Assembly (NCBI GenBank): GCA_014238595.1
Contig: JABAAV010000003.1
Coordinates: 1 to 48,828 of the forward strand
Direction: 5' to 3'
Length of the DNA stretch: 48,828 nucleotides
Source: Myxococcales bacterium
Lineage (GTDB): Bacteria; Myxococcota_A; Polyangia; Haliangiales; J016
This document shows, piece after piece, positions 1-39,785 of this stretch. The translations under genes and the position numbers were made by a program. How positions within the stretch are numbered: position 1 is the first letter of the stretch; each line of letters begins with the position of its first letter. The notes beneath the pieces are model-generated. The model did not search any database and was not told the DNA's origin. It saw nothing but the letters and a program-made list of their open reading frames with translations.

Positions 1-1043
1 GCTTGTTTTTTGATAGAGGCCATCATTTTAATTCGGGTAAGGGCACCTTCAATTTCTCGGACACTTCCTGTTATTTTCTCTGAAAGATAGACAATGGCAT
101 CTTCTGTTAACGCTAATGTGTGTTCCTGTGCTTTGCTTTTCAAAATAGCCTTTCGTAATTCAAATTCTGGTGGGGCTATATCTGCGATTAAACCCCAAGA
201 AAAGCGTGTTTGGAGCCGTTTAGTGAGATTTAAGATCTCATGAGGTTTCTTATCTGATGTCAGGACAATTTGTTTTCCTGTGGAATGAAGCTCATTGAAG
301 ACATGGAAAAATTCATCTTGGGTTTGATTTTTTCCTGCAAAAAATTGGATATCATCGAGTAACAAAACATCGCAATTTTTTCGGATACGATTTCTAAACT
401 GCTGCATTGTTTTATTTCGAATTGCATTAATGTAATCAGTAACAAATTGTTCACATGTCATATAGATAACATTCAGATCTGAACAAGATTGAATTTGATG
501 TCCAATGGCATGAAGCAAATGTGTTTTACCTAAACCAACATCACCACAAATAAACAATGGATTGTATTTAGGTTTTTCAGGAATAGCCGCTGCTTTTGAA
601 GCGGCATGAGCAAGTTGATTGGATTGTCCTACAATAAAACGTTCAAAGGTATAATTTTTGTTGAGATCTTTTTTGTTATGATTCAATCCTGTAGCGTTTT
701 TTGTCAATGAATGCGATTGAGAGACAGATTTGATGGCTTGTGACTCATTAGAGATCTCCGAGAGAGTTTCCGAAGACTGAGCCTCTATTTTTTTCTCTTT
801 GAAGATCACCGTATACAGATCTCCTGTTTCTTCTTTGATGAGATCTAATACGTTTTTAAGAAAATTAGATTCAAACCAAAAACGAATATAATCATCAGGT
901 GTTTGTAAATAAATGACATGCTTAACATGATCGATTTCCAGACATTCAATCGGATTAATCCACATGTTGTAATTTTGTGAAGAAATCCGTTTATTTATTT
1001 GTTTAAGTGCTTGGTTCCAAATTGAAATGTGATCGGATTTCAT
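1..1043 (-). CDS. dnaA: Chromosomal replication initiator DnaA. About 347 N-terminal codons are present; the 3' end runs off the left window edge.
   Basis: Absent from the ORF track because it is open to the window edge. Manual minus-strand translation from the ATG at 1043 gives MKSDHISIWNQALKQINKRISSQNYNMWINPIE...NYTFERFIVGQSNQLAHAASKAAA...PLFICGDVGLGKTHLLHAIGHQI...VLLLDDIQFFAGKNQTQDEFFHVFNELH..GKQIVLTSDKKP...REIEGALTRI. AAA+ Walker A/B and DnaA hallmarks are present. It is divergent from rpmH, the classical arrangement. Confidence 0.95.
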   Translation of the reverse strand, partial: MKSDHISIWNQALKQINKRISSQNYNMWINPIECLEIDHVKHVIYLQTPDDYIRFWFESNFLKNVLDLIKEETGDLYTVIFKEKKIEAQSSETLSEISNESQAIKSVSQSHSLTKNATGLNHNKKDLNKNYTFERFIVGQSNQLAHAASKAAAIPEKPKYNPLFICGDVGLGKTHLLHAIGHQIQSCSDLNVIYMTCEQFVTDYINAIRNKTMQQFRNRIRKNCDVLLLDDIQFFAGKNQTQDEFFHVFNELHSTGKQIVLTSDKKPHEILNLTKRLQTRFSWGLIADIAPPEFELRKAILKSKAQEHTLALTEDAIVYLSEKITGSVREIEGALTRIKMMASIKKQ

Positions 1044-2198: not shown

Positions 2199-3848
2199 AT
2201 GGAAAACCAAGGAAAAAGACTCATTCTTGCGATGGGGTTATCGTTTGTTTTGATGGCTGTTTGGCAATGGTTGTTTCCTCCACCGATGCCTCCATTACCA
2301 ACAGAAACACAGCAAGAAACAGTGGTTCCTTCGCAGGCCGTTGCAAAGCCAACAACTGGAGCCGCGCTTCATGATGAACCCACTAAAGTACGTCCCAAAG
2401 AAGAAACAGTAGCCTTTGCGTTTGATGATATTCATGTAGAAATGTCTACTTATGGTGCGACATTGGTCTCTTGGGAACTTCAAGAAAAAAAATCCGCCAC
2501 AGAACATCGTAATTTTGTGGCTAAAACCGCCAAAGAAACCCAAAGACCACTGCTTTTATCTGTTCGAGAAGCCAATGATGATGATGCGCCATTGTTATCT
2601 CAAGAAAGTACATGGACCATCATTGATAAGCAGGCAAGAGCCATTACATTTGAAAACAAATCTGATCAGTTGAAAATTACAAAACAGATTACGTTCATTC
2701 CAGAATCTTTTTTAGCAAAAGTTAACGTCAATGTTGCGTTGTCACCGCAGGTTACAGGTAAGAAGGCTGTTACCTTGGGCATGAGTCTGTTTGAAAAGAT
2801 CGATCCAACCATTGCCGATGATGCGAGCTTATTTGCACCACCACCACTGGCCTGGCGGGCTATTTGTTCCCTTGACGGTGAATTACAAGAATCAGAAGAA
2901 ACAACACAAACTCATGTTGGCGCTGTAAAATGGGCTGGGTTCAATCACAATTATTTTCTATCAGCCATCATTCCGGAGCGACTACCACGGCTTGAGTGTG
3001 ATGCTAAACCCGTCATGGAATACAGCCGACCTGCAGAAAACGGCATGACTGAAATGCGGTTGTCCTACCCTACAATCATTCTTAAACCAGGTGATCCGTC
3101 ATATGAACGTGCGTTTTATGTGTTTTTAGGGCCTAAATATATTGAAACACTGGAATCTATCGCAACTGTCATTGATCAAACTGGAAAAACCAATCCACAA
3201 TTAGAAGAATCGGTTGAGTTAGGTTGGTTTGCTTTTATTGCACGGCCTCTACTCTGGCTGCTTATTCAGTTTGAATTAGTCGTAGGCAATTGGGGTGTGG
3301 CCATTATCATGCTGACGATTGTTGTGATGCTGTTGACCTTGCCATGGCAAAACAAAGCAATGCGTTCCATGCGTGCTATGTCTAAATTGCGTCCTAAAAT
3401 TGAAGAAATTCAGAAAAAATACACAGATGATAAGCAACGACAACAGACTGAAATTATGGGTCTATATAAAAATCATGGGATTAATCCATTGGCGGGATGT
3501 TTGCCTATGTTTTTGCAAATGCCTATTTGGTTTGCGTTGTATCGTGCGTTGAGTGTTGCTGCCGAGCTTCATCACTCGCCATTTATTCCAGGATGGCTCG
3601 ATGACATGACAGCAACAGATCCCTACTATGTTTTGCCTGTTTTATTGACGATGGTTATGTTTTTACAGGCAAAAATGATGCCTACTACGGTAGAATCTGC
3701 TCAACAAAAGATTATGATCTATGGTATGCCACTAATGTTTGGCGCATTTTCCTTTGTATTTCCAAGTGGTCTAACGCTTTATATTTTTACCAACACGTTA
3801 CTGCGTGGGATTCATCAGTGGTGGCGTAATAATCACGAAGATGCTTAA
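2199..3848 (+). CDS. yidC: Membrane protein insertase YidC
   Basis: 549 aa with an N-terminal TM segment, a large periplasmic domain and the conserved C-terminal core ([31 protein letters not shown]). Synteny agrees. Confidence 0.95.
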
Positions 3849-3881
3849 CTAACCAACAATCAACATTAACCTAGGAAAACT

Positions 3882-4439
3882 ATGATGAGTGATACAATTC
3901 AAAAACCAGATTCAGCAAAAGATTTACTTGCTGCTATTTTAGAACGGATGGGCATTGAGGCCACTATTAATGAATCACAAGACGATGAAAGCATTATGCT
4001 TCAAATCGACTGCAGTGAACCTGAGCGGATTACAGGTTCTTATGGACAAGTGCTTGATGCATTACAACATCTTATTGGTAAGATTTGGTTTCGTCATCAA
4101 CGCGAACAAGCAGGTACGGACGATCAGAATGAATGGGAAGGACCACGCTGGATACGTATTGATGCGAATGGATACCGAGAAAAGAAACGAGAAGCTCTTG
4201 AAACATTGGCAGGCGATATGGCAGAAAAAGCCTCTTCAGAAAATGATACGGTAGCTCTTGAGCCTATGAAATCATATGAACGTCGTATTATTCACAGCAT
4301 ACTTGCCGAAGATTCTCGTGTAGAAACAAAAAGTCATGGACGAGGCGCGAAGCGACATGTTTTAATCATGCCAGTGTCGGAAAGCAGCAGTGCTGTTCAT
4401 TCAGAAAACAACGGTGAAGACATTTCCACAGAACTCTAA
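3882..4439 (+). CDS. jag: Jag/KhpB-type RNA-binding protein (KH plus R3H domains)
   Basis: 185 aa. The C-terminal YERRIIHSILAED..VETKSHG region is R3H-like. Conserved position between yidC and mnmE. Confidence 0.8.
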   Translation: MMSDTIQKPDSAKDLLAAILERMGIEATINESQDDESIMLQIDCSEPERITGSYGQVLDALQHLIGKIWFRHQREQAGTDDQNEWEGPRWIRIDANGYREKKREALETLAGDMAEKASSENDTVALEPMKSYERRIIHSILAEDSRVETKSHGRGAKRHVLIMPVSESSSAVHSENNGEDISTEL

Positions 4440-5799
4440 TAGACCAACGATTGCAGCTATTGCTACTGCGGCAGGACAAGGTGCCGTAGGTATTGTCCGC
4501 ATCAGTGGATCATTAGCGATCTCAATTCTTGCGCGGATCACACATCGATCGGAGCAATTGTTTCAAGATCGTGTCATGACATGTTGTAAGATTGTTGATG
4601 CACAAAACGTACTTGTTGATGAAGCACTTGTTGTGGTGATGCGCGCTCCACGTTCATACACGGGTGAAGATGTTATAGAAATTCATGGGCATGGTGGTCA
4701 TTACAATACAGGTCGATTACTTAGAGTGGTGATTGAGCAAGGTGCAACATTGGCAGAAGCCGGTGAATTTACCATGCGTGCTTTTTTAGCGGGCAAACTT
4801 AACCTTGTTGAAGTTGAAGCTATTGCTGACATTATTAATGCTAGTAGTGAACGTGCTTTGCGATTGGCACAAACACAACAAGGCGGTGCGCTTGTTGCCG
4901 CTTTTTTAGCGATACAAAAAGAAGTGATATCGATGCTTGCTACGATTGAAGCCAACATTGATTTTCCTGAAGAAGGCTTGGAAGAAATGCCAAGACAAAC
5001 ATTGTCTGATGGATTAATGGCTGTTGCACATCAAGCGACATGTTTGGCTGAAACGTTTTCATTAGGTAAGCTTTTAACATCAGGGGTTTCTGTTGCATTG
5101 GTTGGTGCGGTCAATGCAGGGAAATCAAGTTTATTTAATGCGTTGATCGGTGAGCAGCGGTGTTTAGTGACTCATGATCCAGGTACAACCAGAGATTTTA
5201 TTGAAGCAACAGTGGTCTGGGATGGAATTAATATTACATTGATTGATACGGCAGGAACCAGAGATAAAGATCTCTCTGAGAGTCTTGATGATGCAGAGCG
5301 TCAAGGGATTGTCCGCAGTACACAGCGTGCATCAAAGGCAGATTTGCGGTTAGTTGTTCGGGTCGATGGTCAAGAATTTGAGCCATCGTCAATGGATCGC
5401 TCTGATGAACTATGGGTGCAGAGTAAATGTGATCATGACAAAGAAATGATCAATGATCATCACACTCAAGGTGAGAAGCAAAACAGCTTGGTTCGAACCT
5501 CTGTCAAAACAGGTGTGGGTTTGGATGAATTACGACAGGCTATATTGACCCACATTCAAAGCAGAGTCTCTGAAGGTGATGATGGATTTGTGATTACTCA
5601 AGAGCGTCAACGTGATGGATTGGAAAAAACAGCCGCACTGCTTCGTTGTGCTGCCGAAGGTGTTGAGACATCTCAACCATGGGAAATTGTTGCGATTGAC
5701 ATGAAGGATGCAGCAGAAACATTGGCCGCTTTATTAGGTGAGCGATTGGATGATGCTGTGTTGGATGCGGTGTTTGCACAGTTTTGTATTGGTAAATAA
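4390..5799 (+). CDS. mnmE: tRNA modification GTPase MnmE (TrmE)
   Basis: TIAAIATAAGQGAVGIVRISG N-terminus, G-domain GAVNAGKSSLFNAL / DTAG, and the C-terminal FCIGK motif. The 4390 start overlaps jag by 50 nt, so an in-frame GTG at 4414 or a nearby codon may be the true start. Confidence 0.9.
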   Translation: MLFIQKTTVKTFPQNSNRPTIAAIATAAGQGAVGIVRISGSLAISILARITHRSEQLFQDRVMTCCKIVDAQNVLVDEALVVVMRAPRSYTGEDVIEIHGHGGHYNTGRLLRVVIEQGATLAEAGEFTMRAFLAGKLNLVEVEAIADIINASSERALRLAQTQQGGALVAAFLAIQKEVISMLATIEANIDFPEEGLEEMPRQTLSDGLMAVAHQATCLAETFSLGKLLTSGVSVALVGAVNAGKSSLFNALIGEQRCLVTHDPGTTRDFIEATVVWDGINITLIDTAGTRDKDLSESLDDAERQGIVRSTQRASKADLRLVVRVDGQEFEPSSMDRSDELWVQSKCDHDKEMINDHHTQGEKQNSLVRTSVKTGVGLDELRQAILTHIQSRVSEGDDGFVITQERQRDGLEKTAALLRCAAEGVETSQPWEIVAIDMKDAAETLAALLGERLDDAVLDAVFAQFCIGK

Positions 5800-5824
5800 A
5801 TCTTCGCAAGGGTGATCATTAAAC

Positions 5825-6997
5825 ATGGACAGAGATCTTTGGCAGGATGAATTAACATCGTTCGATGACATAGGACGTTTGCGAACACTTAGAATGCTTG
5901 GTGCAGCGCAAGGGACAACGGTTACGATTGATGGGCGATCATTAATTAACATGTCGTCTAATGATTATTTGGGCATGACATCTTGTGTCGATCTTCGCAA
6001 TGCCGCAAGCAAAGCGTCTCTGTTATCGGGGACGGGATCGGGATCTTCTCGATTAATTGCAGGAACACTTTTGTGTCATGAGCAACTAGAGCAAGCACTT
6101 GCAGATTATTATGGCTATGACAAAGCGTTGATTTTTAACTCAGGGTATCAGGCTAATCTCGGGATCTTATCCTCATTGTTTGGTCAAGAGGATGTCATTT
6201 ATTCTGATGCATTCAATCATGCAAGCATTATTGATGGAGCACGGTTGAGTTACGCTGATGTTAAGATCTTCCCACATAACGATATGGAGGCATTAGAAGC
6301 ACTGCTTGCCGAGACACGATCACAGTACCGCCATGGCGTTATTGTCACCGAAGCATTATTTTCTATGGATGGTGATTATGCGCAGCTTTCTAAGATAGCT
6401 GCACTTGCTAAGCAGTATGATCTGTTGTTGATGGTTGATGAGGCACATAGCACAGGGGTTATCGGTGATGGCGGTCGTGGTTTGTCTGCATTGCACTCGG
6501 TGGTTCCTGATATTTATATGGGAACGATGGGCAAAGCCTTTGGTAGTTTTGGTGCATTTGTTCTTGGTCGCGTGTCAATGATTGATCTATTGATTAATAA
6601 AGCACGCAGCTTTGTCTTTACGACAGCATTGCCCCCACCCGTGATTGAAGCAAGTGGCGCGGCATTGAAGATTATTGGGAATACCGACGGTGAACAACGG
6701 CGATCTAAACTTGTGCGATTGGTCAAACATTTTGTTTCAGGGTTGCATGAGCTTTATCCAGAGAGACATTATGACAACCATTCGTCACATATTATTCCGT
6801 TGATTTTTGGTGAGGACAAAAAAACAATGTCGGCGACCACGATGTTATTGGAGCATGGTTATTATGTTCAAGGTATTCGACCACCCACGGTTCCAGAGCA
6901 TACCAGCCGATTACGCTTTAGTTTAAATGCAGAGCATACCGAGCAAGATATTAATAACTTATTGAAGTTATTAGATAAATTAAGGAAAAACTCATGA
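5825..6997 (+). CDS. bioF: 8-amino-7-oxononanoate synthase
   Basis: 390-aa PLP alpha-oxoamine synthase (SNDYLG, HASIIDG, DEAHSTG, GTMGKAFG lysine motif), followed by bioA and bioD. Confidence 0.85.
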   Translation: MDRDLWQDELTSFDDIGRLRTLRMLGAAQGTTVTIDGRSLINMSSNDYLGMTSCVDLRNAASKASLLSGTGSGSSRLIAGTLLCHEQLEQALADYYGYDKALIFNSGYQANLGILSSLFGQEDVIYSDAFNHASIIDGARLSYADVKIFPHNDMEALEALLAETRSQYRHGVIVTEALFSMDGDYAQLSKIAALAKQYDLLLMVDEAHSTGVIGDGGRGLSALHSVVPDIYMGTMGKAFGSFGAFVLGRVSMIDLLINKARSFVFTTALPPPVIEASGAALKIIGNTDGEQRRSKLVRLVKHFVSGLHELYPERHYDNHSSHIIPLIFGEDKKTMSATTMLLEHGYYVQGIRPPTVPEHTSRLRFSLNAEHTEQDINNLLKLLDKLRKNS

Positions 6998-8446: not shown

Positions 8447-9175
8447 TTGACGAATCCTCTTGTGATGCTTAATCTCAGTTTTGTGTCAAAACGTTGGTTC
8501 ATTACAGGTACAGATACAGGTGTCGGTAAAACGACCATCTGCTGTGCATTATTGTTGGCTGCTGCTAAACGAGGGTTGAGCACGGCTGTGAGTAAACCTG
8601 TGGAAACAGGTTGTTTAAAAAAACAAGATCGATTAGTTCCAGAAGATGCCTATCTCTTACAGCGGAATTCTACGATTGATCTACCGTTAGATCTTATCTC
8701 TCCGTATCAATATGAGCCAGCATGTTCACCTTATCAAGCCGCAGTGGATTCCAGTTGCTCTCTTGTGACTAAGCCGATCGTTCTTCGAAGCCTTCAAGAG
8801 ATTGAGACACACAACCCTGATTTTTTATTAATTGAAGGTGCTGGTGGTCTTTTAGCTCCGCTTAATGCACAAGATACTATTCTCGATATGATTGCATGGA
8901 CCAAAGCCCCGTTATTAATTGTAATCCCTAATCGATTAGGTACGATTAGTCATACCTTGTTGACCATCAAATACGCGCAATCTGAAAGCATTGATGTTCA
9001 GGGATTAATATTGTCAAATGCTGAAGAAACGACAGAAGGTTCAACCTTAAGAAATCAAGCACAAATAGAAATGTTTACGGATGTGCCTGTTTTGGGGCAT
9101 ATGCCTTATTTAAAGAACCCAGAAGATGGTGAATCTTCTGCCGAATCCATTTTATCGACATTGTTGATGGAATAA
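8447..9175 (+). CDS. bioD: Dethiobiotin synthetase
   Basis: FITGTDTGVGKT P-loop and EGAGG motif. The TTG at 8447 is the longest start; the ATG at 8465 is an alternative. Confidence 0.85.
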   Translation: MTNPLVMLNLSFVSKRWFITGTDTGVGKTTICCALLLAAAKRGLSTAVSKPVETGCLKKQDRLVPEDAYLLQRNSTIDLPLDLISPYQYEPACSPYQAAVDSSCSLVTKPIVLRSLQEIETHNPDFLLIEGAGGLLAPLNAQDTILDMIAWTKAPLLIVIPNRLGTISHTLLTIKYAQSESIDVQGLILSNAEETTEGSTLRNQAQIEMFTDVPVLGHMPYLKNPEDGESSAESILSTLLME

Positions 9176-9207
9176 TCAGTAAACTTCAACCTGTTTTCTT
9201 GAATCAT

Positions 9208-9223
9208 TGTTTCACGTGAAACG
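9208..9223. promoter_or_regulatory. parS: parS-like site 1 (TGTTTCACGTGAAACG)
   Basis: 15/16 match to the perfect palindrome TGTTTCACGTGAAACA. The 14-bp core is a perfect palindrome. Confidence 0.8.
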
Positions 9224-9277
9224 AGGCATGACTGTGCTTCTGGTTCTGTGAGACTGAACAGAACGATGTTTGAATCA

Positions 9278-9293
9278 TGTTTCACGTGAAACG
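9278..9293. promoter_or_regulatory. parS: parS-like site 2 (TGTTTCACGTGAAACG)
   Basis: Same 16-mer, 70 bp after site 1. Confidence 0.8.
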
Positions 9294-9347
9294 GAGCATG
9301 GTTGTGCTTCTGGTTCTGTGAGATACAGCAGGACGATGTTTGAGTCG

Positions 9348-9363
9348 TGTTTCACGTGAAACG
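9348..9363. promoter_or_regulatory. parS: parS-like site 3 (TGTTTCACGTGAAACG)
   Basis: Same 16-mer, 70 bp after site 2. Confidence 0.8.
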
Positions 9364-9417
9364 GAGCATGGTTGTGCTTCTGGTTCTGTGAAATACAGCA
9401 GGACTATGTTTGAGTCG

Positions 9418-9433
9418 TGTTTCACGTGAAACG
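9418..9433. promoter_or_regulatory. parS: parS-like site 4 (TGTTTCACGTGAAACG)
   Basis: Same 16-mer, 70 bp after site 3. Confidence 0.8.
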
Positions 9434-9487
9434 AAGCATGGGTGTTATTCTGGTTCTTCGAGACTTAACAGAACGATGTTTGAGTTA

Positions 9488-9503
9488 TGTTTCACGTGAA
9501 ACG
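9488..9503. promoter_or_regulatory. parS: parS-like site 5 (TGTTTCACGTGAAACG)
   Basis: Same 16-mer, 70 bp after site 4. Confidence 0.8.
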
Positions 9504-9557
9504 AGGCATGGGTGTAATTATACTTCTGTGAGATACAGAAGAACGATGTTTGAATCG

Positions 9558-9573
9558 TGTTTCACGTGAAACG
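9558..9573. promoter_or_regulatory. parS: parS-like site 6 (TGTTTCACGTGAAACG)
   Basis: Same 16-mer, 70 bp after site 5. Confidence 0.8.
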
Positions 9574-9627
9574 AAGTATGGGTGTAATTATACTTCTGTG
9601 AGATAGAGCAGAACGATGTTTGAATCG

Positions 9628-9643
9628 TGTTTCACGTGAAACG
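9628..9643. promoter_or_regulatory. parS: parS-like site 7 (TGTTTCACGTGAAACG)
   Basis: Same 16-mer, 70 bp after site 6. Confidence 0.8.
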
Positions 9644-9697
9644 AAGCATGATTGTGCTTCTGGTTCTGTGAGATAGAGCAGAACGATGTTTGAATCG

Positions 9698-9713
9698 TGT
9701 TTCACGTGAAACG
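9698..9713. promoter_or_regulatory. parS: parS-like site 8 (TGTTTCACGTGAAACG)
   Basis: Same 16-mer, 70 bp after site 7. Confidence 0.8.
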
Positions 9714-9767
9714 AGGCATGGGTGTAATTATACTTCTGTGAAATACAGCAGAACGATGTTTGAATCG

Positions 9768-9783
9768 TGTTTCACGTGAAACA
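9768..9783. promoter_or_regulatory. parS: parS-like site 9 (TGTTTCACGTGAAACA, full 16-bp palindrome)
   Basis: The only copy that is the perfect 16-bp palindrome. It closes the array about 60 bp upstream of the tsaD start. Confidence 0.8.
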
Positions 9784-9845
9784 TTGTCATGATATTCAAT
9801 AATTGACTTGACAGAAGGGGTGTTTTAAAGGATTCAATAGTCACT

Positions 9846-10853
9846 ATGCTTGTTCTTGGATTAGAAAGCTCATGTGACGAAACAGCAGCAGCTGTTGTGA
9901 GGGATGGAAAAGATGTTCTTTCTGATGTGGTTTTTTCGCAAGATCAGATTCATCAAGACTATGGTGGCATTGTTCCTGAGCTGGCTTCACGAGAACATAT
10001 TAGTCAAGTGATTCCAGTTTTAGCTCAAGCATTAGAAACTGCGAATGTGTCATGGGATGATATTGATGGCATTGCTGTTACTTGTGGTCCAGGGTTGATC
10101 GGTGCTTTGTTTGTTGGGGTTCAAACCGCCAAAGCCATTGCTTATGCTCGGAAAATTCCTTTTGTTGGTGTCAATCATCTTCATGGTCATATTGCTGCGG
10201 TGTTTTTGGATCGAGAAACGCCTGATCCATCTTTTCCTCATCTTGCATTGCTTGTTTCAGGGGGACATACAGAAATCGTTTTAGTTAAATCAATGACCTC
10301 CATGGAACGACTTGGCGTGACTCGAGACGATGCAGCAGGAGAAGCCTTTGATAAAGTCGCCAAAATGCTAGGTCTTGGTTATCCTGGAGGTGCAAAAATC
10401 GATAAGCTCGCTCAACAAGGTGCATTGGGACATTTTTCAATGCCTCGTTTGATGACAGGTGAAAAAACAGGGTATGATTTTTCATTTAGTGGTATTAAAA
10501 CGGCGGTATTACGTATTATTCAAGAGCAAGAATCTTTGAGTGATACCGATATTCAAAATTTAGCGGCTGCATTTCAAGAATCTGTTGTTGAAGTGTTGGT
10601 TCGTAAGATTTCTAAAGCCGTCAAAACCTCTATGATTGATACAGTACAACTTTGTGGTGGTGTTGCAGCGAACAGTCGTTTGCGTTATGTCTTAGAAACG
10701 ACTGGAAAAGAGCAGGGATTTTCTGTTTTTATTCCTCCGTTGTCATATTGTACGGATAATGCGGCGATGATTGCGGCTGCGGGGTATCATCGTTTTCAAG
10801 ATGGCATAGAAGATCCATGGGATTTGTCGGCATCTACGCGAATGTCTTTTTAA
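9846..10853 (+). CDS. tsaD: tRNA N6-adenosine threonylcarbamoyltransferase TsaD
   Basis: MLVLGLESSCDETAAAVV, VNHLHGHI, LLVSGGHTE and GGVAANSRLR are canonical Kae1/TsaD motifs. Confidence 0.95.
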   Translation: MLVLGLESSCDETAAAVVRDGKDVLSDVVFSQDQIHQDYGGIVPELASREHISQVIPVLAQALETANVSWDDIDGIAVTCGPGLIGALFVGVQTAKAIAYARKIPFVGVNHLHGHIAAVFLDRETPDPSFPHLALLVSGGHTEIVLVKSMTSMERLGVTRDDAAGEAFDKVAKMLGLGYPGGAKIDKLAQQGALGHFSMPRLMTGEKTGYDFSFSGIKTAVLRIIQEQESLSDTDIQNLAAAFQESVVEVLVRKISKAVKTSMIDTVQLCGGVAANSRLRYVLETTGKEQGFSVFIPPLSYCTDNAAMIAAAGYHRFQDGIEDPWDLSASTRMSF

Positions 10854-11840: not shown

Positions 11841-12812
11841 TTACGGACAATATTGATCAGTATAACTTCCGAGATCACAATTTGTCAGGTATCTGTTCAG
11901 AAAGAAATAATCACTGTCGTTCTCTATGGAATCTTCTATGGAAGTCAAGGCTGGTATTGAAAAATCTGTCAGTTCATCGTTGTAACTGATCTTGATGTAA
12001 CCACCCAGAGTGGTTAAGAGGGGTAGTGAAAATTCTGTCAGTGCATCATCGTCAGTAATGTATAAACTATGACCTATAGTAGTTAAAGCGGGCAATGAAA
12101 CTTCTGTCAATGCATCACTATAACTGATCCATAGGGAACCATCCATGGTGGTTAAGACGGGTAATGAAATATGCCTCAATACTCTATTTGCTGTAATCGA
12201 TACAACACCACCGACGCTTTTTAAAGCGGGTAGTGAAATCTCTGTCATACTGTTAAATCTGAATATGAAGACTCCTTCTATGGAAGTCAAAGCGGGTAGT
12301 AAAAGGTTTGTCAAACGGTAGTTTTCATATAAAAACACCTCACCAGTAATCTGCTCAAGCAATGGAAGATTAATCACCGTTATAGCAGAACTATCGAACT
12401 GAAGAGATCCCCAGAGTACAGTACAATCACGCACCGAATCCAATTGCGCTTGAGAGGTTACAATCCCAGTACAGTCAATGATCGGTTCTTGTGAACTTGG
12501 TCTTTTTGGTAGCGGAAGACAAAATACATCTCCAGAGTCCTCTGTGACGCCATCCCAAGAAGATACTCCACGACATAGTAGATCAGGGTCGGGATCATTT
12601 GAAGGGAGCTCTGGCCTTACTGGATCTGGCGTTGACCCTGTTTCATTAGACGGTGTTGATGCAGACTCTTCATCTACTGTTTCAGAAGATGGTCTTGATG
12701 CAGAGTTTTCATCTATTGCTTCAGAAGAGGGTGTTAATGCAGACTCTTTATCATGACAACCGAAGAGACCAAGACTAAGAATCAAAGAGAGAGAGATTGT
12801 TAATGTTTTCAT
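11841..12812 (-). CDS. Repeat (receptor-L-domain-like / LRR beta-helix) lipoprotein, long paralog with a Ser/Glu/Pro-rich linker
   Basis: Signal peptide plus lipobox MKTLTISLSLILSLGLFGC. Low-complexity linker (SASRPSSETVDEESASTPSNE...). Then RDCTVLWGSLQF and about 22-24-aa repeats of the form L(T/S)x(I/V)SLPxLTx(I/V)xGxLxIxxNxxL. The C-terminus is NCDLGSYTDQYCP. Confidence 0.7.
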   Translation of the reverse strand: MKTLTISLSLILSLGLFGCHDKESALTPSSEAIDENSASRPSSETVDEESASTPSNETGSTPDPVRPELPSNDPDPDLLCRGVSSWDGVTEDSGDVFCLPLPKRPSSQEPIIDCTGIVTSQAQLDSVRDCTVLWGSLQFDSSAITVINLPLLEQITGEVFLYENYRLTNLLLPALTSIEGVFIFRFNSMTEISLPALKSVGGVVSITANRVLRHISLPVLTTMDGSLWISYSDALTEVSLPALTTIGHSLYITDDDALTEFSLPLLTTLGGYIKISYNDELTDFSIPALTSIEDSIENDSDYFFLNRYLTNCDLGSYTDQYCP

Positions 12813-27825: not shown

Positions 27826-28875
27826 TCAATTACCCTCTGAACATTCGTCATATTTTTCAGCAATGTTTGCCAGACATGCGCTGCTTTCTGATGGTCTATC
27901 ATCGAAAAAGTCCTCATCGAAAATGTCACTGTCATCATTACCGATTGCCGCAACTCTACAACGTTGTAAAGGATGTGGTGCGATGTTGAGTGTGTCTAAC
28001 CAATCTTCAATATCACAAGAGGATAATGATCCGTTATATTCAATTCCCACAACAGGATCTTGCATAACAACCTCTTCCCCAAAATCCTCGATTAAGCGAT
28101 TCCATCCCTCTGTATTGTTTCCAACATCAGTCAGTGAATTGAGATCCAAAGATTGTAATTCATCGTTTAGAAAAACATGGAGAAGTACCCCAATTGAGGT
28201 TAACGCATCAAGAGAGAATGTGTTTAATTGACTGTTGAGATCCAGAGTTACTCCTCCAAGAACTGTTTCCAACTTTGGAAAATCAATCGATTGGAGTGTT
28301 TCGGTTTGTGTAATCTCTAGAGTGCCTTCAATTGCAGTCAGGACAGGCAATGTCATTGATGAAAAGTTTTTAGTTGCTGCAATTGACAGATTACCTCCTA
28401 TATTAAGAAGAGCGGGGAATTTTGAAAAATCAGTCATCTCAAGCGTTGTATCTGTAGAGAGATATCCTTCAATTTTTAAGTCTTCTCCAATGGTTGTTAG
28501 CTGAGGAAATCCTGAAAAATCAGTGAGATTTTTCGTATCTTGGATAATAAGGCTACCACTAATATCTGTGAGGCAAGGAACATCGTGGACTGTATTTTCA
28601 ATAAAAAGATCGCCTTCAATCCTCGACAATGTTTTCAATTCGAATATCTCGAGGGGTAAAAAATCATCGTCTTTAAGAAACAAACTACCATTATAGACTT
28701 GATCGGGATTACAGGTCTCTGTAGGCGTAGGACCCTCTTCCCCAGGAATGATATCAGGATCAATAGACGAAGAAGTAGCCGTAGGCTCTGAAGCTACAGA
28801 GACAGGCTCGTGGTTGCACCCAAGACTGACACAAAAAAACAGAAGCATAGAACTAATATAGTGGCGCGGCATCAT
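27826..28875 (-). CDS. Repeat (receptor-L-domain-like / LRR beta-helix) lipoprotein, distant paralog
   Basis: Signal peptide MMPRHYISSMLLFFCVSLGC. About 24-aa repeats follow (LTDISGSLIIQDTKNLTDFSGFPQLTTIGEDLKIEG..., LPVLTAIEGTLEITQTETLQSIDFPKLETVLGGVTLDLNSQL...). Cys-containing acidic C-terminus. AAGGAG RBS 8 nt upstream. Confidence 0.65.
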   Translation of the reverse strand: MMPRHYISSMLLFFCVSLGCNHEPVSVASEPTATSSSIDPDIIPGEEGPTPTETCNPDQVYNGSLFLKDDDFLPLEIFELKTLSRIEGDLFIENTVHDVPCLTDISGSLIIQDTKNLTDFSGFPQLTTIGEDLKIEGYLSTDTTLEMTDFSKFPALLNIGGNLSIAATKNFSSMTLPVLTAIEGTLEITQTETLQSIDFPKLETVLGGVTLDLNSQLNTFSLDALTSIGVLLHVFLNDELQSLDLNSLTDVGNNTEGWNRLIEDFGEEVVMQDPVVGIEYNGSLSSCDIEDWLDTLNIAPHPLQRCRVAAIGNDDSDIFDEDFFDDRPSESSACLANIAEKYDECSEGN

Positions 28876-33335: not shown

Positions 33336-34427
33336 ATGATAGTTCAATCCATGCAGCAAGTTTTAGATCATAAAGGAGCTCTTTGTCAGGATGCAAAGAT
33401 GCCTGATTTATCCGATAAGGAGCTGCTTCGTTTGTTTGATACGATGCTTCATGTTCGTGTTATGGACGAACGGATGCTTCGTTTACAACGGCAAGGACGA
33501 TTAGGGTTTTACATGACATCTCTTGGAGAAGAAGCAACCCATTTAGCGGTTCAGCCTTTAACACAGGAGGATTGTCTGTTTCCTTCATACCGTGAAACCG
33601 GTGCTTTATTTTGGCGCGGATTGACTAATGAAGATTATATCAATCAACTTTATGGAAATCGAAAAGATCCAATCAAAGGACGACAGATGCCCGTGCATCA
33701 TTCGTCAAAAGAGAAAAACATTGTTTCGATAAGTTCACCCGTAGGGACACAGATTCCTCAAGCCGTTGGTGCTGCTATGGCAGGTCGTAAGCAAGGTCGT
33801 GCTGCCATGGTTTTTTTTGGTGAAGGAACCTCATCTACGGGATCTTTTCATGTTGGCTGTAATTTTGCCGCTGTCATGAAGGCCCCTGTGGTTTTTATAT
33901 GCCGTAATAATGGTTGGGCAATTTCCGTACCCAAACATAAGCAAACTGCATCAGAAACATTTGCTCAAAAAGCAATTGCCTATGGGATGCCAGGTATTTT
34001 AGTTGATGGTAACGATATCTTGGCCGTGGTTGCCGCAGCACAAGAAGCAGTCGCTCATGCCAAAGCAGGCAAAGGCCCAACATTAATAGAGCTTAAAACA
34101 TATCGCATGGGAGGTCATTCAAGTTCAGATGATCCTTCAGTCTATCGAGATGAAGCGGAAGTAACTGAATGGGAATCAGCAGATCCCGTCAATCGATTTC
34201 ATGCGTATCTAAAAAACAAAAAACTTTTAACAGATGATCAAGAAACCAAGATGCGTGATGCGCATGTTAAAAATATAACAGAAGCACAAAACATTGCAGA
34301 CAAAGAGCCTCCACCTGAGGTTGAAACATTGTTTGACGATGTGTTTGAAGAAATGCCATGGCATCTTAAAGAACAACAAGCGTGGTTATTGCAACAAAAA
34401 CGAACGAAATCGCCGCATGGTCATTGA
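33336..34427 (+). CDS. Branched-chain 2-oxoacid dehydrogenase E1 alpha subunit
   Basis: RLQRQGRLGFY, the TPP motif FGEGTSSTGSFHVGCNFAAV...FICRNNGWAIS (GEG form, as in BCKDH E1a), and YRMGGHSSSDDPSVYR. Confidence 0.85.
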   Translation: MIVQSMQQVLDHKGALCQDAKMPDLSDKELLRLFDTMLHVRVMDERMLRLQRQGRLGFYMTSLGEEATHLAVQPLTQEDCLFPSYRETGALFWRGLTNEDYINQLYGNRKDPIKGRQMPVHHSSKEKNIVSISSPVGTQIPQAVGAAMAGRKQGRAAMVFFGEGTSSTGSFHVGCNFAAVMKAPVVFICRNNGWAISVPKHKQTASETFAQKAIAYGMPGILVDGNDILAVVAAAQEAVAHAKAGKGPTLIELKTYRMGGHSSSDDPSVYRDEAEVTEWESADPVNRFHAYLKNKKLLTDDQETKMRDAHVKNITEAQNIADKEPPPEVETLFDDVFEEMPWHLKEQQAWLLQQKRTKSPHGH

Positions 34428-34459
34428 TCGTATCACCATGGAAGGATGAAAAAGCAACT

Positions 34460-35425
34460 ATGCCTACAATGAATATAATTCAAGCTGTTAACGATGCATT
34501 GCATCTTGAGATGAAACGCAACGATAAGATCATTGTTCTTGGTGAAGATGTGGGGAAATTTGGTGGTGTATTTCGAGCAACGAGTGGTCTATCCGAAACC
34601 TTTGGTGACGATCGTGTTATTGATACCCCGCTTTCTGAAGAAGGTATTATTGGAACAGCAATTGGTATGGCTCTGTATGGATTAAGACCTGTTCCTGAAA
34701 TTCAGTTTTCGGATTTTATTTTTCCAGCGTTTGACCAAATTGTGAATGAACTTGCAAAATTTCGCTATCGTTCTGGTGGTCAATACCCTTGTCCTGTCGT
34801 GATACGAACACCCTATGGTGGTGGTATTCGTGGTGGTCATTACCATTCACAATCACCTGAAGCTTTGTTTATTCATACCCCTGGCTTGAAAGTGATTACG
34901 CCTTCAAATCCTGTTGATGCTAAAGGTCTATTGTTAAGTGCTATGCGTCAAAACGATCCCGTGATTTTTCTTGAACCGAAACGTATTTACCGTGCATCAA
35001 AAGGAGATGTTTCGAAAGAAGATTATACAACACCGATTGGTAAAGCAGCGATTGTACAAGAAGGAACAGATTGTACATTAATTACTTATGGCGCAATGGT
35101 CTCTGTAGCATTGGAAGCCGCGCAACAAACAGATGTTTCCATTGAAGTGATTGATCTACGGACATTGCTTCCATTTGATATAGAAACGGTTATTGCTTCT
35201 GTAACAAAAACAAATCGTGCAATGGTGCTTCATGAAGCACCGAAAACCTGTGGATTTGGTGCAGAATTAATTGCTTCAATTCAAGAACGTGCGTTGGATC
35301 AATTACATGCACCTATTTTGCGTGTCTGTGGTTTTGATACACCGTTTCCGTATACGTTAGAATTTGAATATTTACCGAATGCAGATCGTGTTCTTTCTTG
35401 TGTTCATGAAATTATGGAGTGGTGA
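34460..35425 (+). CDS. Branched-chain 2-oxoacid dehydrogenase E1 beta subunit
   Basis: MPTMNIIQAVNDAL..., GEDVGKFGGVFR, DTPLSEEGI and FLEPKRIY. The ATG at 34460 follows GGAAGGA. The longest ORF, starting at 34382, overlaps the E1a 3' end. Confidence 0.9.
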   Translation: MPTMNIIQAVNDALHLEMKRNDKIIVLGEDVGKFGGVFRATSGLSETFGDDRVIDTPLSEEGIIGTAIGMALYGLRPVPEIQFSDFIFPAFDQIVNELAKFRYRSGGQYPCPVVIRTPYGGGIRGGHYHSQSPEALFIHTPGLKVITPSNPVDAKGLLLSAMRQNDPVIFLEPKRIYRASKGDVSKEDYTTPIGKAAIVQEGTDCTLITYGAMVSVALEAAQQTDVSIEVIDLRTLLPFDIETVIASVTKTNRAMVLHEAPKTCGFGAELIASIQERALDQLHAPILRVCGFDTPFPYTLEFEYLPNADRVLSCVHEIMEW

Positions 35426-35428
35426 GTT

Positions 35429-36616
35429 ATGTCTTTTTCGTTTCGTTTACCCGATATTGGTGAAGGTGTTGTAGAGGGCGAAGTTGTTGCTTGGAAAGTT
35501 TCCGAAGGGGACTTGATTGCACTTGATGAGCCGATGGTAGAAATTCAAACAGACAAAGCTTCTGTAGAAATACCATCACCACGACAAGGAACCATTGCTA
35601 AAATCATGTTTCAAGAGGGTGAAATTTGTCCTGTGGGTGATGTGTTGGTGGTCATTGATGTTGAAGGTGAAGAAACATCACAAGAGACGCAATCACAAGA
35701 AAGTACACCGCAGCAGAAAACACCTGCATCTCCCAAAACATCTAAATCATCAAATTCAAAAAGTCATGGTAAATCTTCTGTATTGGCACCACCTTCAGTG
35801 CGAAAATTAGCACGAGAAAAAGGTGTTGATTTGGAATCCATTGCGATCAAAGGAAAACGAATTTCTGCCGAGGATGTTCTTGAAGCCGCAAGAGCAACAA
35901 CAGGTACTTCAAATTCGGAAAGTCAACGTGAAGAGCGTATTCCACTAAAAGGTGTCCGTGCAAAGATTGCTGAAAACATGAGTCAGTCAGTGTCAACAGC
36001 CGCACATTTTACTTATGTTGAAGAACTGGATGTTACAACATTAGTTGAGTTGCGTCAGCAAGCCAAAAAGAACATGGAAAATCTAACGTATTTACCATTC
36101 TTTATCAAAGCCGTTGTTGCGGGACTAAAAAAACATCCAGAACTTAATGCGACATTAGATGAACAATCTAAAGAGATTGTTCATAAATTTTATTATCATA
36201 TTGGTATTGCGATACAAGGTACAAACGGATTGGTGGTGGTTGTGATTCGTGATGCTGATAAAAAATCGATTAAAGAATTGTCTCACGAGATTGTGAGATT
36301 GTCTGACGAAGTGCAAACAAATAAAATCAAACGCGATGATATGGTTGGATCAACCTTCACTATTTCTTCTTTGGGTCAACGTGGTGGTGTCTTGGCAACG
36401 CCGATTATTAATTTTCCTGAAGTTGGTATTTTAGGTGTTCACCAGCTCAAAGAAAAACCTGCTGTTTATCAAGGCGAGATTGTTCCACGTTGGTTGATGA
36501 ATCTTTCATTATCGTTGGATCATCGTATTGTGGATGGTTGGAATGGCGCTGAGTTTATGAATACAGTCAAAACAGCACTTGAAGCACCTGATCCTATGTT
36601 TACGGATTTAATGTAG
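35429..36616 (+). CDS. Dihydrolipoamide acyltransferase E2 (single lipoyl domain)
   Basis: Lipoyl motif EIQTDKASVEI, Ser/Pro/Lys-rich linker, subunit-binding PSVRKLAREKGVDL, and catalytic DHRIVDG. Confidence 0.9.
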   Translation: MSFSFRLPDIGEGVVEGEVVAWKVSEGDLIALDEPMVEIQTDKASVEIPSPRQGTIAKIMFQEGEICPVGDVLVVIDVEGEETSQETQSQESTPQQKTPASPKTSKSSNSKSHGKSSVLAPPSVRKLAREKGVDLESIAIKGKRISAEDVLEAARATTGTSNSESQREERIPLKGVRAKIAENMSQSVSTAAHFTYVEELDVTTLVELRQQAKKNMENLTYLPFFIKAVVAGLKKHPELNATLDEQSKEIVHKFYYHIGIAIQGTNGLVVVVIRDADKKSIKELSHEIVRLSDEVQTNKIKRDDMVGSTFTISSLGQRGGVLATPIINFPEVGILGVHQLKEKPAVYQGEIVPRWLMNLSLSLDHRIVDGWNGAEFMNTVKTALEAPDPMFTDLM

Positions 36617-37686
36617 TGTACGCACTGGATCAGTATCTTGCTTGTGATGCGAAAGTAAAAGCAACCTCACTGTTTTCTCTTCTTTCCGAAGACGGAATAT
36701 TGCAAGAGGGGTTTGATTTAGATCAAGAATCATTGCTCCGAATGTATCGTGGTATGCGTAGGCTTCGTATTCTTGATGAGCGCATGCTTATTCTGCAACG
36801 GCAAGGACGTATTGGATTTTACGGAGAAGCCCGTGGACAGGAAGCGGCAGTGATTGGAACAGCATCGGCGCTTTGTGAAAAAGATTGGATTGTTCCTGCA
36901 CTGCGTGAAGCTGGTGTTGGATTATATTGTGGGATGCCACTGTCGATTTATATTAATCAAATCTTTGGTAATGCCGCGGATGTTTCAAAAGGGCGGCAAA
37001 TGCCATGTCATCCTTGTGACAAAGATCACAATTATGTTGTGATGTCTTCATGTGTTGCAAATCAACTACCGCATGCTGTCGGTATTGCTTGGGCAATGAA
37101 ACACAACAAGGACACTGATAGATTATGTGTAAGTTACATGGGTGATGGAGGAACGAGCGAAGGAAGTTTTCATATTGGACTAAATTTCGCACAGACAATG
37201 TCGGTTCCTGTATTGTTCATCTGTCAAAACAATGGATGGGCTATTTCAACACCTACAAACAAACAAACCATATCAGAGACCTATGCAATCAAAGGGTTGG
37301 CCTATGACATGGAATCGTTGCGTGTTGATGGTAATGATTTATTAGCAGTATCAACATTAACAAAATATGCCGCTGAAAAAATACGTAAAGATCAAAAACC
37401 TATTTTTATTGAAGCGGTCACTTATCGTGTGAGTGCTCATTCAAGTTCGGATGATCCATCACGATATCGAGATGAATCGGTAACGAAAGAATGGATCGAG
37501 AAAAGAGATCCTATTGATCGAATTCGAAAACTTTTGTTTGAAAAAAAATGGATGACAGAAGACGAAGATCAAAAAATAACACACCATTTTGAATCTGAAA
37601 TTAATCAAGAGATCAAAAAAGCTGAAGCAATTGAATTGCCAGATAAAAAAACGCTAACGCAAGATGTTTTTGAAGAAGAACAATAA
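36616..37686 (+). CDS. Second, diverged 2-oxoacid dehydrogenase E1 alpha paralog
   Basis: ILQRQGRIGFY, the TPP motif MGDGGTSEGSFHIGLNFAQT...FICQNNGWAIS (GDG form), and YRVSAHSSSDDPSRYR. Its GTG start shares one nucleotide with the E2 stop codon. No second E1 beta gene follows. Confidence 0.8.
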   Translation: MYALDQYLACDAKVKATSLFSLLSEDGILQEGFDLDQESLLRMYRGMRRLRILDERMLILQRQGRIGFYGEARGQEAAVIGTASALCEKDWIVPALREAGVGLYCGMPLSIYINQIFGNAADVSKGRQMPCHPCDKDHNYVVMSSCVANQLPHAVGIAWAMKHNKDTDRLCVSYMGDGGTSEGSFHIGLNFAQTMSVPVLFICQNNGWAISTPTNKQTISETYAIKGLAYDMESLRVDGNDLLAVSTLTKYAAEKIRKDQKPIFIEAVTYRVSAHSSSDDPSRYRDESVTKEWIEKRDPIDRIRKLLFEKKWMTEDEDQKITHHFESEINQEIKKAEAIELPDKKTLTQDVFEEEQ

Positions 37687-37723
37687 AGCTATGATAGTTA
37701 ACTATCATGAAGGATAAAAAACG

Positions 37724-39130
37724 ATGCAAGAAAAAAAAGTAGATGTCGCTGTTCTTGGAGCAGGTCCAGGGGGTTATGTTTCTGCAATTCGTTTGGGACA
37801 AAAAGGATTATCTACGATGATTGTAGATAAGGCTTTTATTGGTGGTACTTGTCTCAATACAGGATGCATTCCGTCAAAATCATTAATCCACGCAGCAAGT
37901 TTTGTTTCAGTTTCTACACATGCAAAATCGATAGGCATTACATTCGATACACCAACAATCGATATGAAATCGATACAAACATGGAAACAAGGTATCGTAT
38001 CGCGGCTAACGAAAGGTGTTGAAGGATTATTAAAAGGCAATCACGTTGATGTTGTTAACGGTCATGCCTCGTTTATTTCAAGCGATACAGATCATCATGA
38101 ATTACTGGTTGATGAGACCACCAAAATTATAGCGAAACATGTCGTGATTGCGACAGGCTCTACAGCAAGAACACTGCCCGAATTCCCTGTTGATCAAACA
38201 ACGATTCTTGATTCTACTGGATTGTTAAATCTCGAAACAATTCCCCAAAGTTTAATCATTTTAGGTGGTGGTTATATTGGGCTTGAATTGGGCATCGTGT
38301 ATGCCAAACTTGGTACAGCGGTCACGATTGTTGAAACAATGCCACGGCTTTTGTCAGCAATGGATCCTGATACTGTGGCTGTGGTTTCAAAAACATTACG
38401 ACGGCTTGGTGTTGTTGTTCACTGCAACACCGTTGTCAAAAATCACACAAAACATTCAACATCTATTTCATTAGAGATACAAACAGATCAAAAAAACCAA
38501 ACGATTGAAGCTGAAAAATTATTTGTTTCAATCGGACGAAAACCAAACACTGAAGGTCTTGGATTAGATAAGATTGATTTAAACACAGATGAACATGGCT
38601 TTATTCCTGTCAATGAAACACTGCAAACAAACAAACCAGGTATCTATGCGATTGGTGATGTTACATCTGGTCCCATGCTTGCACATCGTGCATCCAATCA
38701 AGGTGAAATTGTTGCTGATGTCATTTGTGGCGATACTTCCGCAATCGATCCACGTGTTATCCCTGCTGTTGTTTTTACCGATCCTGAAATTTCATCAGTC
38801 GGCATGACCGAATCTGAATTAAAAGAGGCGGGATGTTCTGTTCTTGTTGGAAAATTCCCTTTTGCAGCATCGGGTCGAGCAATGAGTGTCAATAATACAG
38901 ACGGATTTGTTAAAGTGATTGCTGACAGTGAGACAAAAGCCATTCTTGGTGTTCATATTGTTGGTGCGCATGCTTCAGAAATGATTGCTGAAGCAGGACT
39001 TGTTATTGAAATGGGTGCAACATTAGAAGATATTGTTGGTACTGTTCATGCACATCCATCATTAAGTGAAGCGTTTGTAGAAGCAGCACATGTTGCTTTG
39101 GGTCAAGCCCTTCATATTATGGCAAAATAA
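37724..39130 (+). CDS. lpdA: Dihydrolipoyl dehydrogenase E3
   Basis: GAGPGGY FAD motif, redox-active GGTCLNTGCIPSK, NAD-site GGGYIGLE, and C-terminal HAHPSLSE. Confidence 0.9.
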   Translation: MQEKKVDVAVLGAGPGGYVSAIRLGQKGLSTMIVDKAFIGGTCLNTGCIPSKSLIHAASFVSVSTHAKSIGITFDTPTIDMKSIQTWKQGIVSRLTKGVEGLLKGNHVDVVNGHASFISSDTDHHELLVDETTKIIAKHVVIATGSTARTLPEFPVDQTTILDSTGLLNLETIPQSLIILGGGYIGLELGIVYAKLGTAVTIVETMPRLLSAMDPDTVAVVSKTLRRLGVVVHCNTVVKNHTKHSTSISLEIQTDQKNQTIEAEKLFVSIGRKPNTEGLGLDKIDLNTDEHGFIPVNETLQTNKPGIYAIGDVTSGPMLAHRASNQGEIVADVICGDTSAIDPRVIPAVVFTDPEISSVGMTESELKEAGCSVLVGKFPFAASGRAMSVNNTDGFVKVIADSETKAILGVHIVGAHASEMIAEAGLVIEMGATLEDIVGTVHAHPSLSEAFVEAAHVALGQALHIMAK

Positions 39131-39140
39131 TACAACGGTT

Positions 39141-39785
39141 GTGCAATCTACATTGTCTCATACAACCATTGTTTCTGATTTAGGTCGGTTAGATTACAAG
39201 ACAACATGGAAAAAACAACTCGAGTTGTTGTCAGACTGTCAAAAAACGAAACAAGAATATTTACTGATGGTGGAACATCCACCTGTCATTACGTTAGGGA
39301 GACGACGAGATAGTATCTCCAATGTTCTTAATGACGATAATATTGATGTCGTTTCTGTAGAACGAGGTGGTGATGTTACCTATCACGGGTTTGGGCAATT
39401 AGTTGTTTATCCAATTTTGTATTTGCGAGAAGATGAACGTGACTTACATCGATATATGCGAAATTTAGAGCAAGCCATTATTGATGTGTTGATGTATTAT
39501 GACATCAAAGGGGATCGTATTTCTGGACAAACAGGTGTTTGGGTTGAAGACAGAAAAATTGCGTCAATCGGTATTGCATGTCGTCGATGGGTGACCTTTC
39601 ATGGATTAGCCTTGAATGTTACGACAGATTTAAAATCCTTTCTAAAAATCAATCCCTGTGGTTTTGATGCATCAGTCATGACCAGTATGAGTAACGAAAG
39701 CTCTCAAGATCAAATCGATATAGAACGCATTAAACCTCAAATGCTTCAAACATTGGGTCATGTGTTGAAACGTAAATTTATATGA
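39141..39785 (+). CDS. lipB: Octanoyltransferase LipB
   Basis: LGRLDYKTTW, EHPPVITLGRR, RGGDVTYHGFGQLV, the active-site Cys in INPCGF, and KI.SIG. The longest ORF, starting at 39090, overlaps lpdA by 41 nt. An in-frame GTG at 39141 is preferred but unverified. Confidence 0.8.
   Translation: MQSTLSHTTIVSDLGRLDYKTTWKKQLELLSDCQKTKQEYLLMVEHPPVITLGRRRDSISNVLNDDNIDVVSVERGGDVTYHGFGQLVVYPILYLREDERDLHRYMRNLEQAIIDVLMYYDIKGDRISGQTGVWVEDRKIASIGIACRRWVTFHGLALNVTTDLKSFLKINPCGFDASVMTSMSNESSQDQIDIERIKPQMLQTLGHVLKRKFI

Follow-up and report, generated by a model that had tools for sequence, protein, structure and literature searches.

What is a block of nine parS-like palindromes, repeated head to tail every 70 bp, doing between bioD and tsaD about 8 kb from dnaA, and how did it come to lie there? 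The window, by which we mean the whole 48,828-nucleotide (48.8-kb) stretch of DNA that was analysed, a complete contig of an NCBI metagenome-assembled genome, contains the following features at and around this block.

1 to 1043, minus strand: dnaA, truncated at the 3′ end by the edge of the contig, with the start codon at 1043 (translation 97% identical to full-length DnaA P0132)
8447 to 9175, plus strand: bioD, last gene of mnmE-bioF-bioA-bioD (NCBIfam TIGR00347, E = 1.9e-41)
9199 to 9783, no strand assigned: tandem array with eight complete 70-bp units and a terminal parS (TRF; units aligned in register)
9208 to 9223, no strand assigned: parS 1, TGTTTCACGTGAAACG (motif scan)
9278 to 9293, no strand assigned: parS 2, TGTTTCACGTGAAACG (motif scan)
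9348 to 9363, no strand assigned: parS 3, TGTTTCACGTGAAACG (motif scan)
9418 to 9433, no strand assigned: parS 4, TGTTTCACGTGAAACG (motif scan)
9488 to 9503, no strand assigned: parS 5, TGTTTCACGTGAAACG (motif scan)
9558 to 9573, no strand assigned: parS 6, TGTTTCACGTGAAACG (motif scan)
9628 to 9643, no strand assigned: parS 7, TGTTTCACGTGAAACG (motif scan)
9698 to 9713, no strand assigned: parS 8, TGTTTCACGTGAAACG (motif scan)
9768 to 9783, no strand assigned: parS 9, the perfect 16-bp palindrome TGTTTCACGTGAAACA (motif scan)
9784 to 9845, plus strand: unique sequence from the array to the tsaD start codon (by position)
9846 to 10853, plus strand: tsaD, followed by rsmA (NCBIfam TIGR03723, E = 7e-130)

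First of all, the sites themselves have to be identified. A sequence scan of the window finds nine of them, starting at 9208, 9278, 9348, 9418, 9488, 9558, 9628, 9698 and 9768, eight with the sequence TGTTTCACGTGAAACG and one, the last, with the perfect TGTTTCACGTGAAACA; the 14-bp core is a perfect palindrome. All nine are inverted repeats that match the 16-bp parS consensus tGTTNCACGTGAAACa with at most one mismatch (0–1 in 9/9). Searching the window for TGTTNCACGTGAAACA with up to two mismatches returns the nine array sites only (18 strand-matches), while dinucleotide shuffles yield 0.44 ± 0.78 matches and reach 18 in 0 of 100 cases. Tandem Repeats Finder (TRF) reports a repeat at 9199–9782 with a period of 70, 8.3 copies, 86% matches and 0% indels, and the nine sites fit inside 576 bp (9208 to 9783). 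Each 70-bp unit is made up of one parS and a 54-bp variable spacer, with whole units 52–66/70 identical to each other in pairwise comparison. The first-pass annotation had described nine sites of the chromosomal parS consensus, in a tandem repeat of exactly 70 bp between bioD and tsaD, and all of these statements were reproduced; the parS reading of the array is very probably right.

On the bioD side, the array begins 24 bp beyond the stop codon of that gene, and the sequence preceding it, when compared with the repeat unit, has no likeness to it beyond TTGAATCA. Downstream, 62 bp separate the end of the array from the tsaD start, and in this interval positions 9804–9824 show some likeness to a stretch of the repeat (aligned locally with unit 4 as GACTTGACAGAAGGGGTGTTT, with a score reached in 20 of 500 shuffles), which may perhaps be a decayed partial unit.

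A number of other readings of the repeat were tried and dropped. A 210-bp super-repeat is no better a description than the 70-bp one, the TRF row at 210 bp having an 86% match that is equal to the 70-bp row. It had also been proposed that every third site faces the same side of the helix; units three apart are, however, no more alike than neighbours (59/70 identical on average versus about 60/70), and the periods of other arrays vary without a common phase, so that helical phasing was abandoned. The block is not a CRISPR array, as its variable segments are homologous to one another and the window has no cas families (NCBIfam, Pfam) and no Rfam families, nor is it a dispersed repeat or mobile element, given that neither the rest of the window nor the other loci contain the spacer sequence. 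A scan of JGI metagenomes for the 70-bp unit returned one unrelated high-GC contig only. Promoters within the units were considered as well, with four promoter-like sites against 3.0 ± 1.8 in shuffles, which is not significant, and the array contains no terminators.

Second, the surroundings are those of a main chromosome close to its origin. From dnaA on the minus strand, the order continues on the plus strand with rpmH, rnpA, yidD, yidC, jag, mnmE, bioF, bioA, bioD, the array, tsaD and rsmA, and the distance from the dnaA start to the array is 8.2 kb. A sister contig continues past dnaA into dnaN, recF and gyrB, and its GC skew has a minimum, with a change of sign, at the dnaA/dnaN junction. 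The dnaA-dnaN-recF-gyrB housekeeping context and the skew switch together mark the replicon as the main chromosome and place the array approximately 8–10 kb from the origin, in agreement with the origin-proximal placement claimed earlier. The 10 kb of the sister contig past dnaA hold one parS-like site only, with two mismatches. The intergenic region between dnaA and rpmH (1044–1440) is AT-rich and, by eye, contains DnaA-box-like TTATCAACA motifs, with TGTTGATAA at ~1071–1091; these motifs are on the dnaA-rpmH side, whereas the skew switch of the sister contig is on the dnaA/dnaN side.

Among named taxa, the nearest to TsaD and DnaA belong to Haliangium, Haliangiales, Kofleriaceae and other Myxococcota, with identities of 45–63% only; judged from best hits alone, the host may be a deep, low-GC (~40%) lineage in or near Myxococcota. 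The remainder of the window offers some observations of its own. A 323-aa ORF without a family match (11841–12812, minus strand) carries an in-frame 39-bp tandem repeat of 2.9 copies (12638–12752); its homologue in the third assembly described below (L122) has a faint match to the Receptor L domain, a domain that is also matched (1.8e-11) by a 349-aa ORF at 27826–28875 on the minus strand, and the region of the 323-aa ORF is rearranged in the sister strain, where there is an inverted partial copy (85.7% alignment). A 2-oxoacid dehydrogenase cluster occupies 33336–39785 on the plus strand, with two E1 alpha-type genes (33336–34427 and 36616–37686) around E1 beta and E2, followed by E3 and a lipoyl ligase/transferase. 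Further along, at 41138–43195 on the plus strand, a FHIPEP-family protein (FlhA/SctV type, E = 5e-204) is encoded between a murA-like EPSP-synthase-family gene and an HD-domain gene, with no further flagellar or type III secretion genes visible beside it in the window.

As the first-pass annotation had noted, neither parA nor parB is present in the window: a six-frame motif search, NCBIfam and Pfam of the ORFs detect no ParA, ParB or SMC in its 48.8 kb. None of the three is encoded in the 10 kb of the sister contig past dnaA either, and there is no parAB from −14 kb to +39 kb of the array (roughly 62 kb of sequence covered overall). It had further been suggested that bioFAD here replaces the usual mnmG-rsmG-parAB string; since a distant relative has mnmE-bioFAD too, this is instead a trait of the lineage.

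Third, that same relative sheds light on where the array came from. The closest distinct relative found (L129), an 80.6-kb JGI metagenome contig of 69% GC whose TsaD is 63% identical, has the layout dnaA / rpmH-rnpA-yidD-yidC-jag-mnmE-bioFAD followed by tsaD-rsmA, where bioD and tsaD are separated by four additional genes, one of them rsmG. At the 3′ flank of bioD it has four scattered parS cores within 1.4 kb, one in bioD, one 26 bp past its stop codon, and one at either end of a small ORF next to rsmG. The site just past bioD reads CGTTCCACGTGGAACA, which is the reverse complement of the Myxococcus xanthus consensus TGTTCCACGTGGAACG (PMC3899335), and the internal copies of our array share the outer T...G of that consensus. 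Since parS sits at the same bioD flank in both lineages, the centromere position predates their split, and the lineage of the window has amplified one site, together with what surrounds it, as a 70-bp unit. The relative has repeats of its own, namely a 12-bp tandem repeat (CGGTCTCGGATT, 8.8 copies, L129 4470–4575) 20 bp past the post-bioD parS, and a 221-aa ORF downstream of rsmG (L129 4640–5305) that is packed with repeats of 6 to 42 bp, has parS cores at both ends and has no Pfam match.

The array can also be followed in other metagenome assemblies, a comparison that had been recommended at the outset. Scaffold L126, which comes from a different sample record, is 99.8% identical to the window in its flanks and has nine units in unchanged order, its N-gap merely repeating the left edge of the array. 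In a third assembly (contig L122/L128), with flanks 97.8% identical, there are six parS at a strict 70-bp period with the spacer types reshuffled. The unique flanks on the bioD side and on the tsaD side are joined in all three assemblies. Three short contigs (L124, L125 and L127), on the other hand, end within the array, and a 7.8-kb contig from the same sample as L122 (L001/L123, ena:ERZ26869290:ctg312998) is a fold-back in which inverted tsaD-rsmA flanks both ends of a scrambled array with irregular spacings of 34–145 bp; it is probably a chimeric artefact of the assembly or of the reads, seeded by the palindromic repeats. These metagenome assemblies, with one fold-back chimera and contigs that break in the array, leave the exact unit number per strain somewhat uncertain, while the longest exact repeat within the array is only 51 bp, so that reads or k-mers above that length can order the units. 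We take the array to be real, with a copy number that is probably right and that is polymorphic between strains. Palindrome-bearing tandem arrays at a centromere break metagenome assemblies or make them fold back, and in metagenome-assembled genomes (MAGs) they will be under-counted.

Having copies from two strains allowed constraint on the site to be compared with that on its surroundings. When all 15 copies (nine plus six) are aligned in register, the 15-bp TGTTTCACGTGAAAC is invariant in 15/15, with variants in 0 of 225 cells, and position 16 of the site is G in the internal copies and A in the terminal copy. Outside the core, 109 of 726 cells (15%) hold a minor allele, and variation is seen in 31 of the 54 columns. 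Concerted evolution would homogenise whole units; that the core has remained perfect amid drifting sequence speaks instead for selection acting on each site, and the alignment indicates that purifying selection keeps each parS core intact. The invariance of the 15-bp core in 15 copies, together with the parS at the same bioD flank in the distant relative, strengthens the reading of the array as a centromere. We therefore have good confidence in the proposal that the array is the putative origin-proximal centromere of this chromosome, a predicted ParB loading cluster that would have arisen by tandem duplication of a 70-bp segment carrying an ancestral parS.

Among the alternatives, the one that survives best is that of a neutral minisatellite, in which a parS-bearing 70-bp segment has grown by replication slippage and the extra copies add no function. 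Copy number does differ between strains (six versus nine), the palindromes can pair with each other in single-stranded DNA (two units folded as DNA give z = −4.8), which would make slippage easier, and a single parS is sufficient in several model species (PMC7333895). The contrast between ~15% divergence outside parS and 0/225 core changes in 15 copies, however, needs purifying selection on each copy, and similar arrays recur independently, again origin-proximal, in other phyla; we consider a purely neutral origin improbable.

A further alternative is that another protein binds the array and controls tsaD or the bio operon via a silencing complex, the candidates being a ParB paralogue and a transcription factor. 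The ninth site shares bases with the first hexamer of a promoter-like match (GTGAAA-16 nt-AATAAT, 9776–9803) that lies shortly upstream of tsaD, although this match is at chance level. ParB-family paralogues with other roles do exist (Noc; VirB, PMC10770331), and some arrays from Bacilli contain a second palindrome per unit, consistent with a second binding protein there. In our unit, the second inverted repeat (TTCTGT...ACAGAA), which was considered as a binding site or hairpin and rejected, shows no conserved pairing: for 13 spacers, RNAalifold predicts six pairs, a consensus energy of −3.9 kcal/mol and no compensatory change. The site is moreover the canonical segregation parS and no variant of it, and the parS locus is conserved in a relative in which the neighbouring genes are different. 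With a canonical site at a parS locus that is ancestral, there is no need to invoke another protein, and we regard such regulation as quite unlikely. Least credible of all is that short-read assembly expanded or mis-joined a palindromic repeat, as the fold-back contig, the three contigs that break in the array and the duplicated array start at the N-gap of L126 might suggest, since the units are distinguishable with no internal exact repeat above 51 bp, the nine-unit order is repeated in a second assembly from another sample record, the six-unit array of the third is clean and both unique flanks are joined in all three.

Returning to the reading as a ParB-loading centromere, the array could work as follows, assuming a cognate ParB and the established biology of ParABS, in which ParB clamps load at parS, ParA moves the complex and SMC is loaded there (reviewed in PMC7333895). 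A ParB dimer would bind each palindrome and, on binding CTP, would close as a clamp and slide away onto the DNA at its flanks. With nine loading sites next to one another, the loading flux and the local concentration of ParB would be expected to rise, and the outcome would be one robust partition complex ~8 kb from oriC that ParA segregates and at which SMC is loaded. [quoted passage not shown] One parS usually suffices for segregation in model species (PMC7333895), and the benefit of having nine here is accordingly one that we infer. As to copy number, slippage or unequal recombination between units would shift it (six versus nine in the sister strains) while selection keeps the cores. The palindromes are mutually complementary, and single strands can mispair between units, which explains both the change in copy number and the fold-back assemblies.

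How common, then, are dense or tandem clusters of parS? Taking a single genome for each bacterial and archaeal species, we looked for three parS cores with 30–60 bp between them (44–74 bp spacing) and found at least 120 loci across many phyla. The matches listed include Myxococcota, Acidobacteriota, Planctomycetota, Bacteroidota, Actinomycetota, Bacillota, Patescibacteria and others, with complete genomes of cultured strains among them. According to TRF, 27 of the 120 loci among the matches listed are true tandem arrays over at least three parS. Their periods, again among the matches listed, are 22–81 bp where there is one site per unit (e.g. 23, 29, 35, 44–47, 55, 57, 62–64 and 66 bp), and two of these arrays have several sites per unit, at TRF periods of 124 and 175 bp. 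Within the 8-kb locus, a ParB box II motif occurs in 48 and a ParA Walker motif in 53 of the 120 matches listed (~40%). Packed parS sites on a chromosome had been taken by the first-pass annotation to be exceptional and plasmid-style, a view that does not hold in the face of at least 120 species genomes with tight triplets, 27 of those listed being tandem, and of M. xanthus, which has 22 parS in 3 kb in a cluster that ParB binds in EMSA (PMC3899335). Streptomyces coelicolor and Listeria innocua have 20–23 sites (PMC7333895). For natural tandem-repeat parS arrays on chromosomes as such, we found no paper, within an incomplete coverage of the literature.

Several of the surveyed arrays resemble ours in being true tandem repeats with one parS per unit, and differ from it in lineage, unit sequence and period. 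Among the matches listed, the nearest analogue in size is L045 (CANRCZ010000003.1, a Bacilli MAG), where nine parS at 5382–5896 form a 55-bp repeat of 9.4 copies with 88% matches between gyrA and tadA-dnaX-recR. The same locus is occupied in L067 (CAMZHD010000016.1, a Bacillales MAG) by a 64-bp unit of 7.8 copies at 3558–4054, between gyrA and tadA-dnaX near the origin; neither L045 nor L067 has a parAB motif within the 8-kb locus. Further tandem arrays are L030 (seven sites, 46 bp), L050 (five sites, 63 bp) and L012 (JAFVEF010000033.1, a Bacilli MAG; 62-bp unit, 6.7 copies, 18–435). In L067 and L012 each unit carries one parS plus the palindrome ATTTCCCGGGAAAT, which we take to be the Noc-binding-site (NBS) consensus. 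If the palindrome is a Noc site, these two arrays would consist of alternating ParB and Noc sites, and no description of such a composite arrangement of parS and NBS-like sites was found in the literature. What these uncharacterised tandem arrays show is that the architecture recurs, and not what it does.

As a natural case, the array shows cleanly how a parS cluster can form, in that an ancestral site has been amplified, the cores are kept, the spacers drift and copy number varies between close strains, and it thereby bears on why parS numbers vary and why sites cluster. A broader and distinctly more tentative idea, which we put forward as a speculation, is that of a fast-evolving "satellite" centromere: tandem amplification of a parS unit might be the general origin of clusters, with copy number as a selectable dial for ParB loading, far from a parAB that has left the origin region. 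If true, this would directly answer the question of what drives parS clustering, which is an open one (PMC7333895), and would provide a parallel to the satellite centromeres of eukaryotes.

Finally, we compare the array with the named systems. The parS sites of B. subtilis, C. crescentus, P. aeruginosa and C. glutamicum (PMC7333895) are like those of the array in sequence, in proximity to the origin and in the presumed functions of ParB-CTP loading, ParA and SMC. They lie kilobases apart and often in genes (PMC7333895), whereas the array sites are all intergenic, 70 bp apart and homologous along the whole unit. sopC of the F plasmid, which consists of 12 direct repeats, each 43 bp long and containing a 16-bp inverted repeat (PMC3177203), has been offered as an architectural parallel. 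The likeness stands as far as the repeats go, both being head-to-tail arrays with one inverted-repeat site per unit that are read as nucleation sites for a ParB-family partition complex. It fails for the plasmid location next to its own sopAB/parAB: the array is on the main chromosome, has no partition genes adjacent, uses the chromosomal consensus, and is built from 70-bp units that are far more diverged outside the site. The array is not a plasmid-style novelty.

The M. xanthus cluster (22–24 sites in ~3 kb; Iniesta 2014, PMC3899335) is like the array in that canonical chromosomal parS sites are densely packed near the origin of a Myxococcota-type lineage, and its 16-mer has the outer T...G in common with the internal copies of the window. 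In Myxococcus sp. Y35, the sites of the cluster are spaced by 74, 73, 80 and 67 bp, and part of it is a repeat of three 67-bp copies with parS in the unit, which suggests that the Myxococcus cluster is partly the same architecture in a decayed form. The array of the window, on the other hand, is confined to 0.58 kb, is strictly periodic and ~86% homogeneous, and has an AT-type core, TTTCAC and not TTCCAC. It lies 8 kb from oriC, as against ~35 kb for the M. xanthus cluster, and has no parAB from −14 to +39 kb, while the M. xanthus cluster is within 4 kb of parAB (a few kb upstream). Taken with the survey, these comparisons show that the array belongs to a known class, that of dense parS clusters near the origin, which are typical of Myxococcota and widespread elsewhere, and that within this class it is compact, homogeneous and recently amplified.
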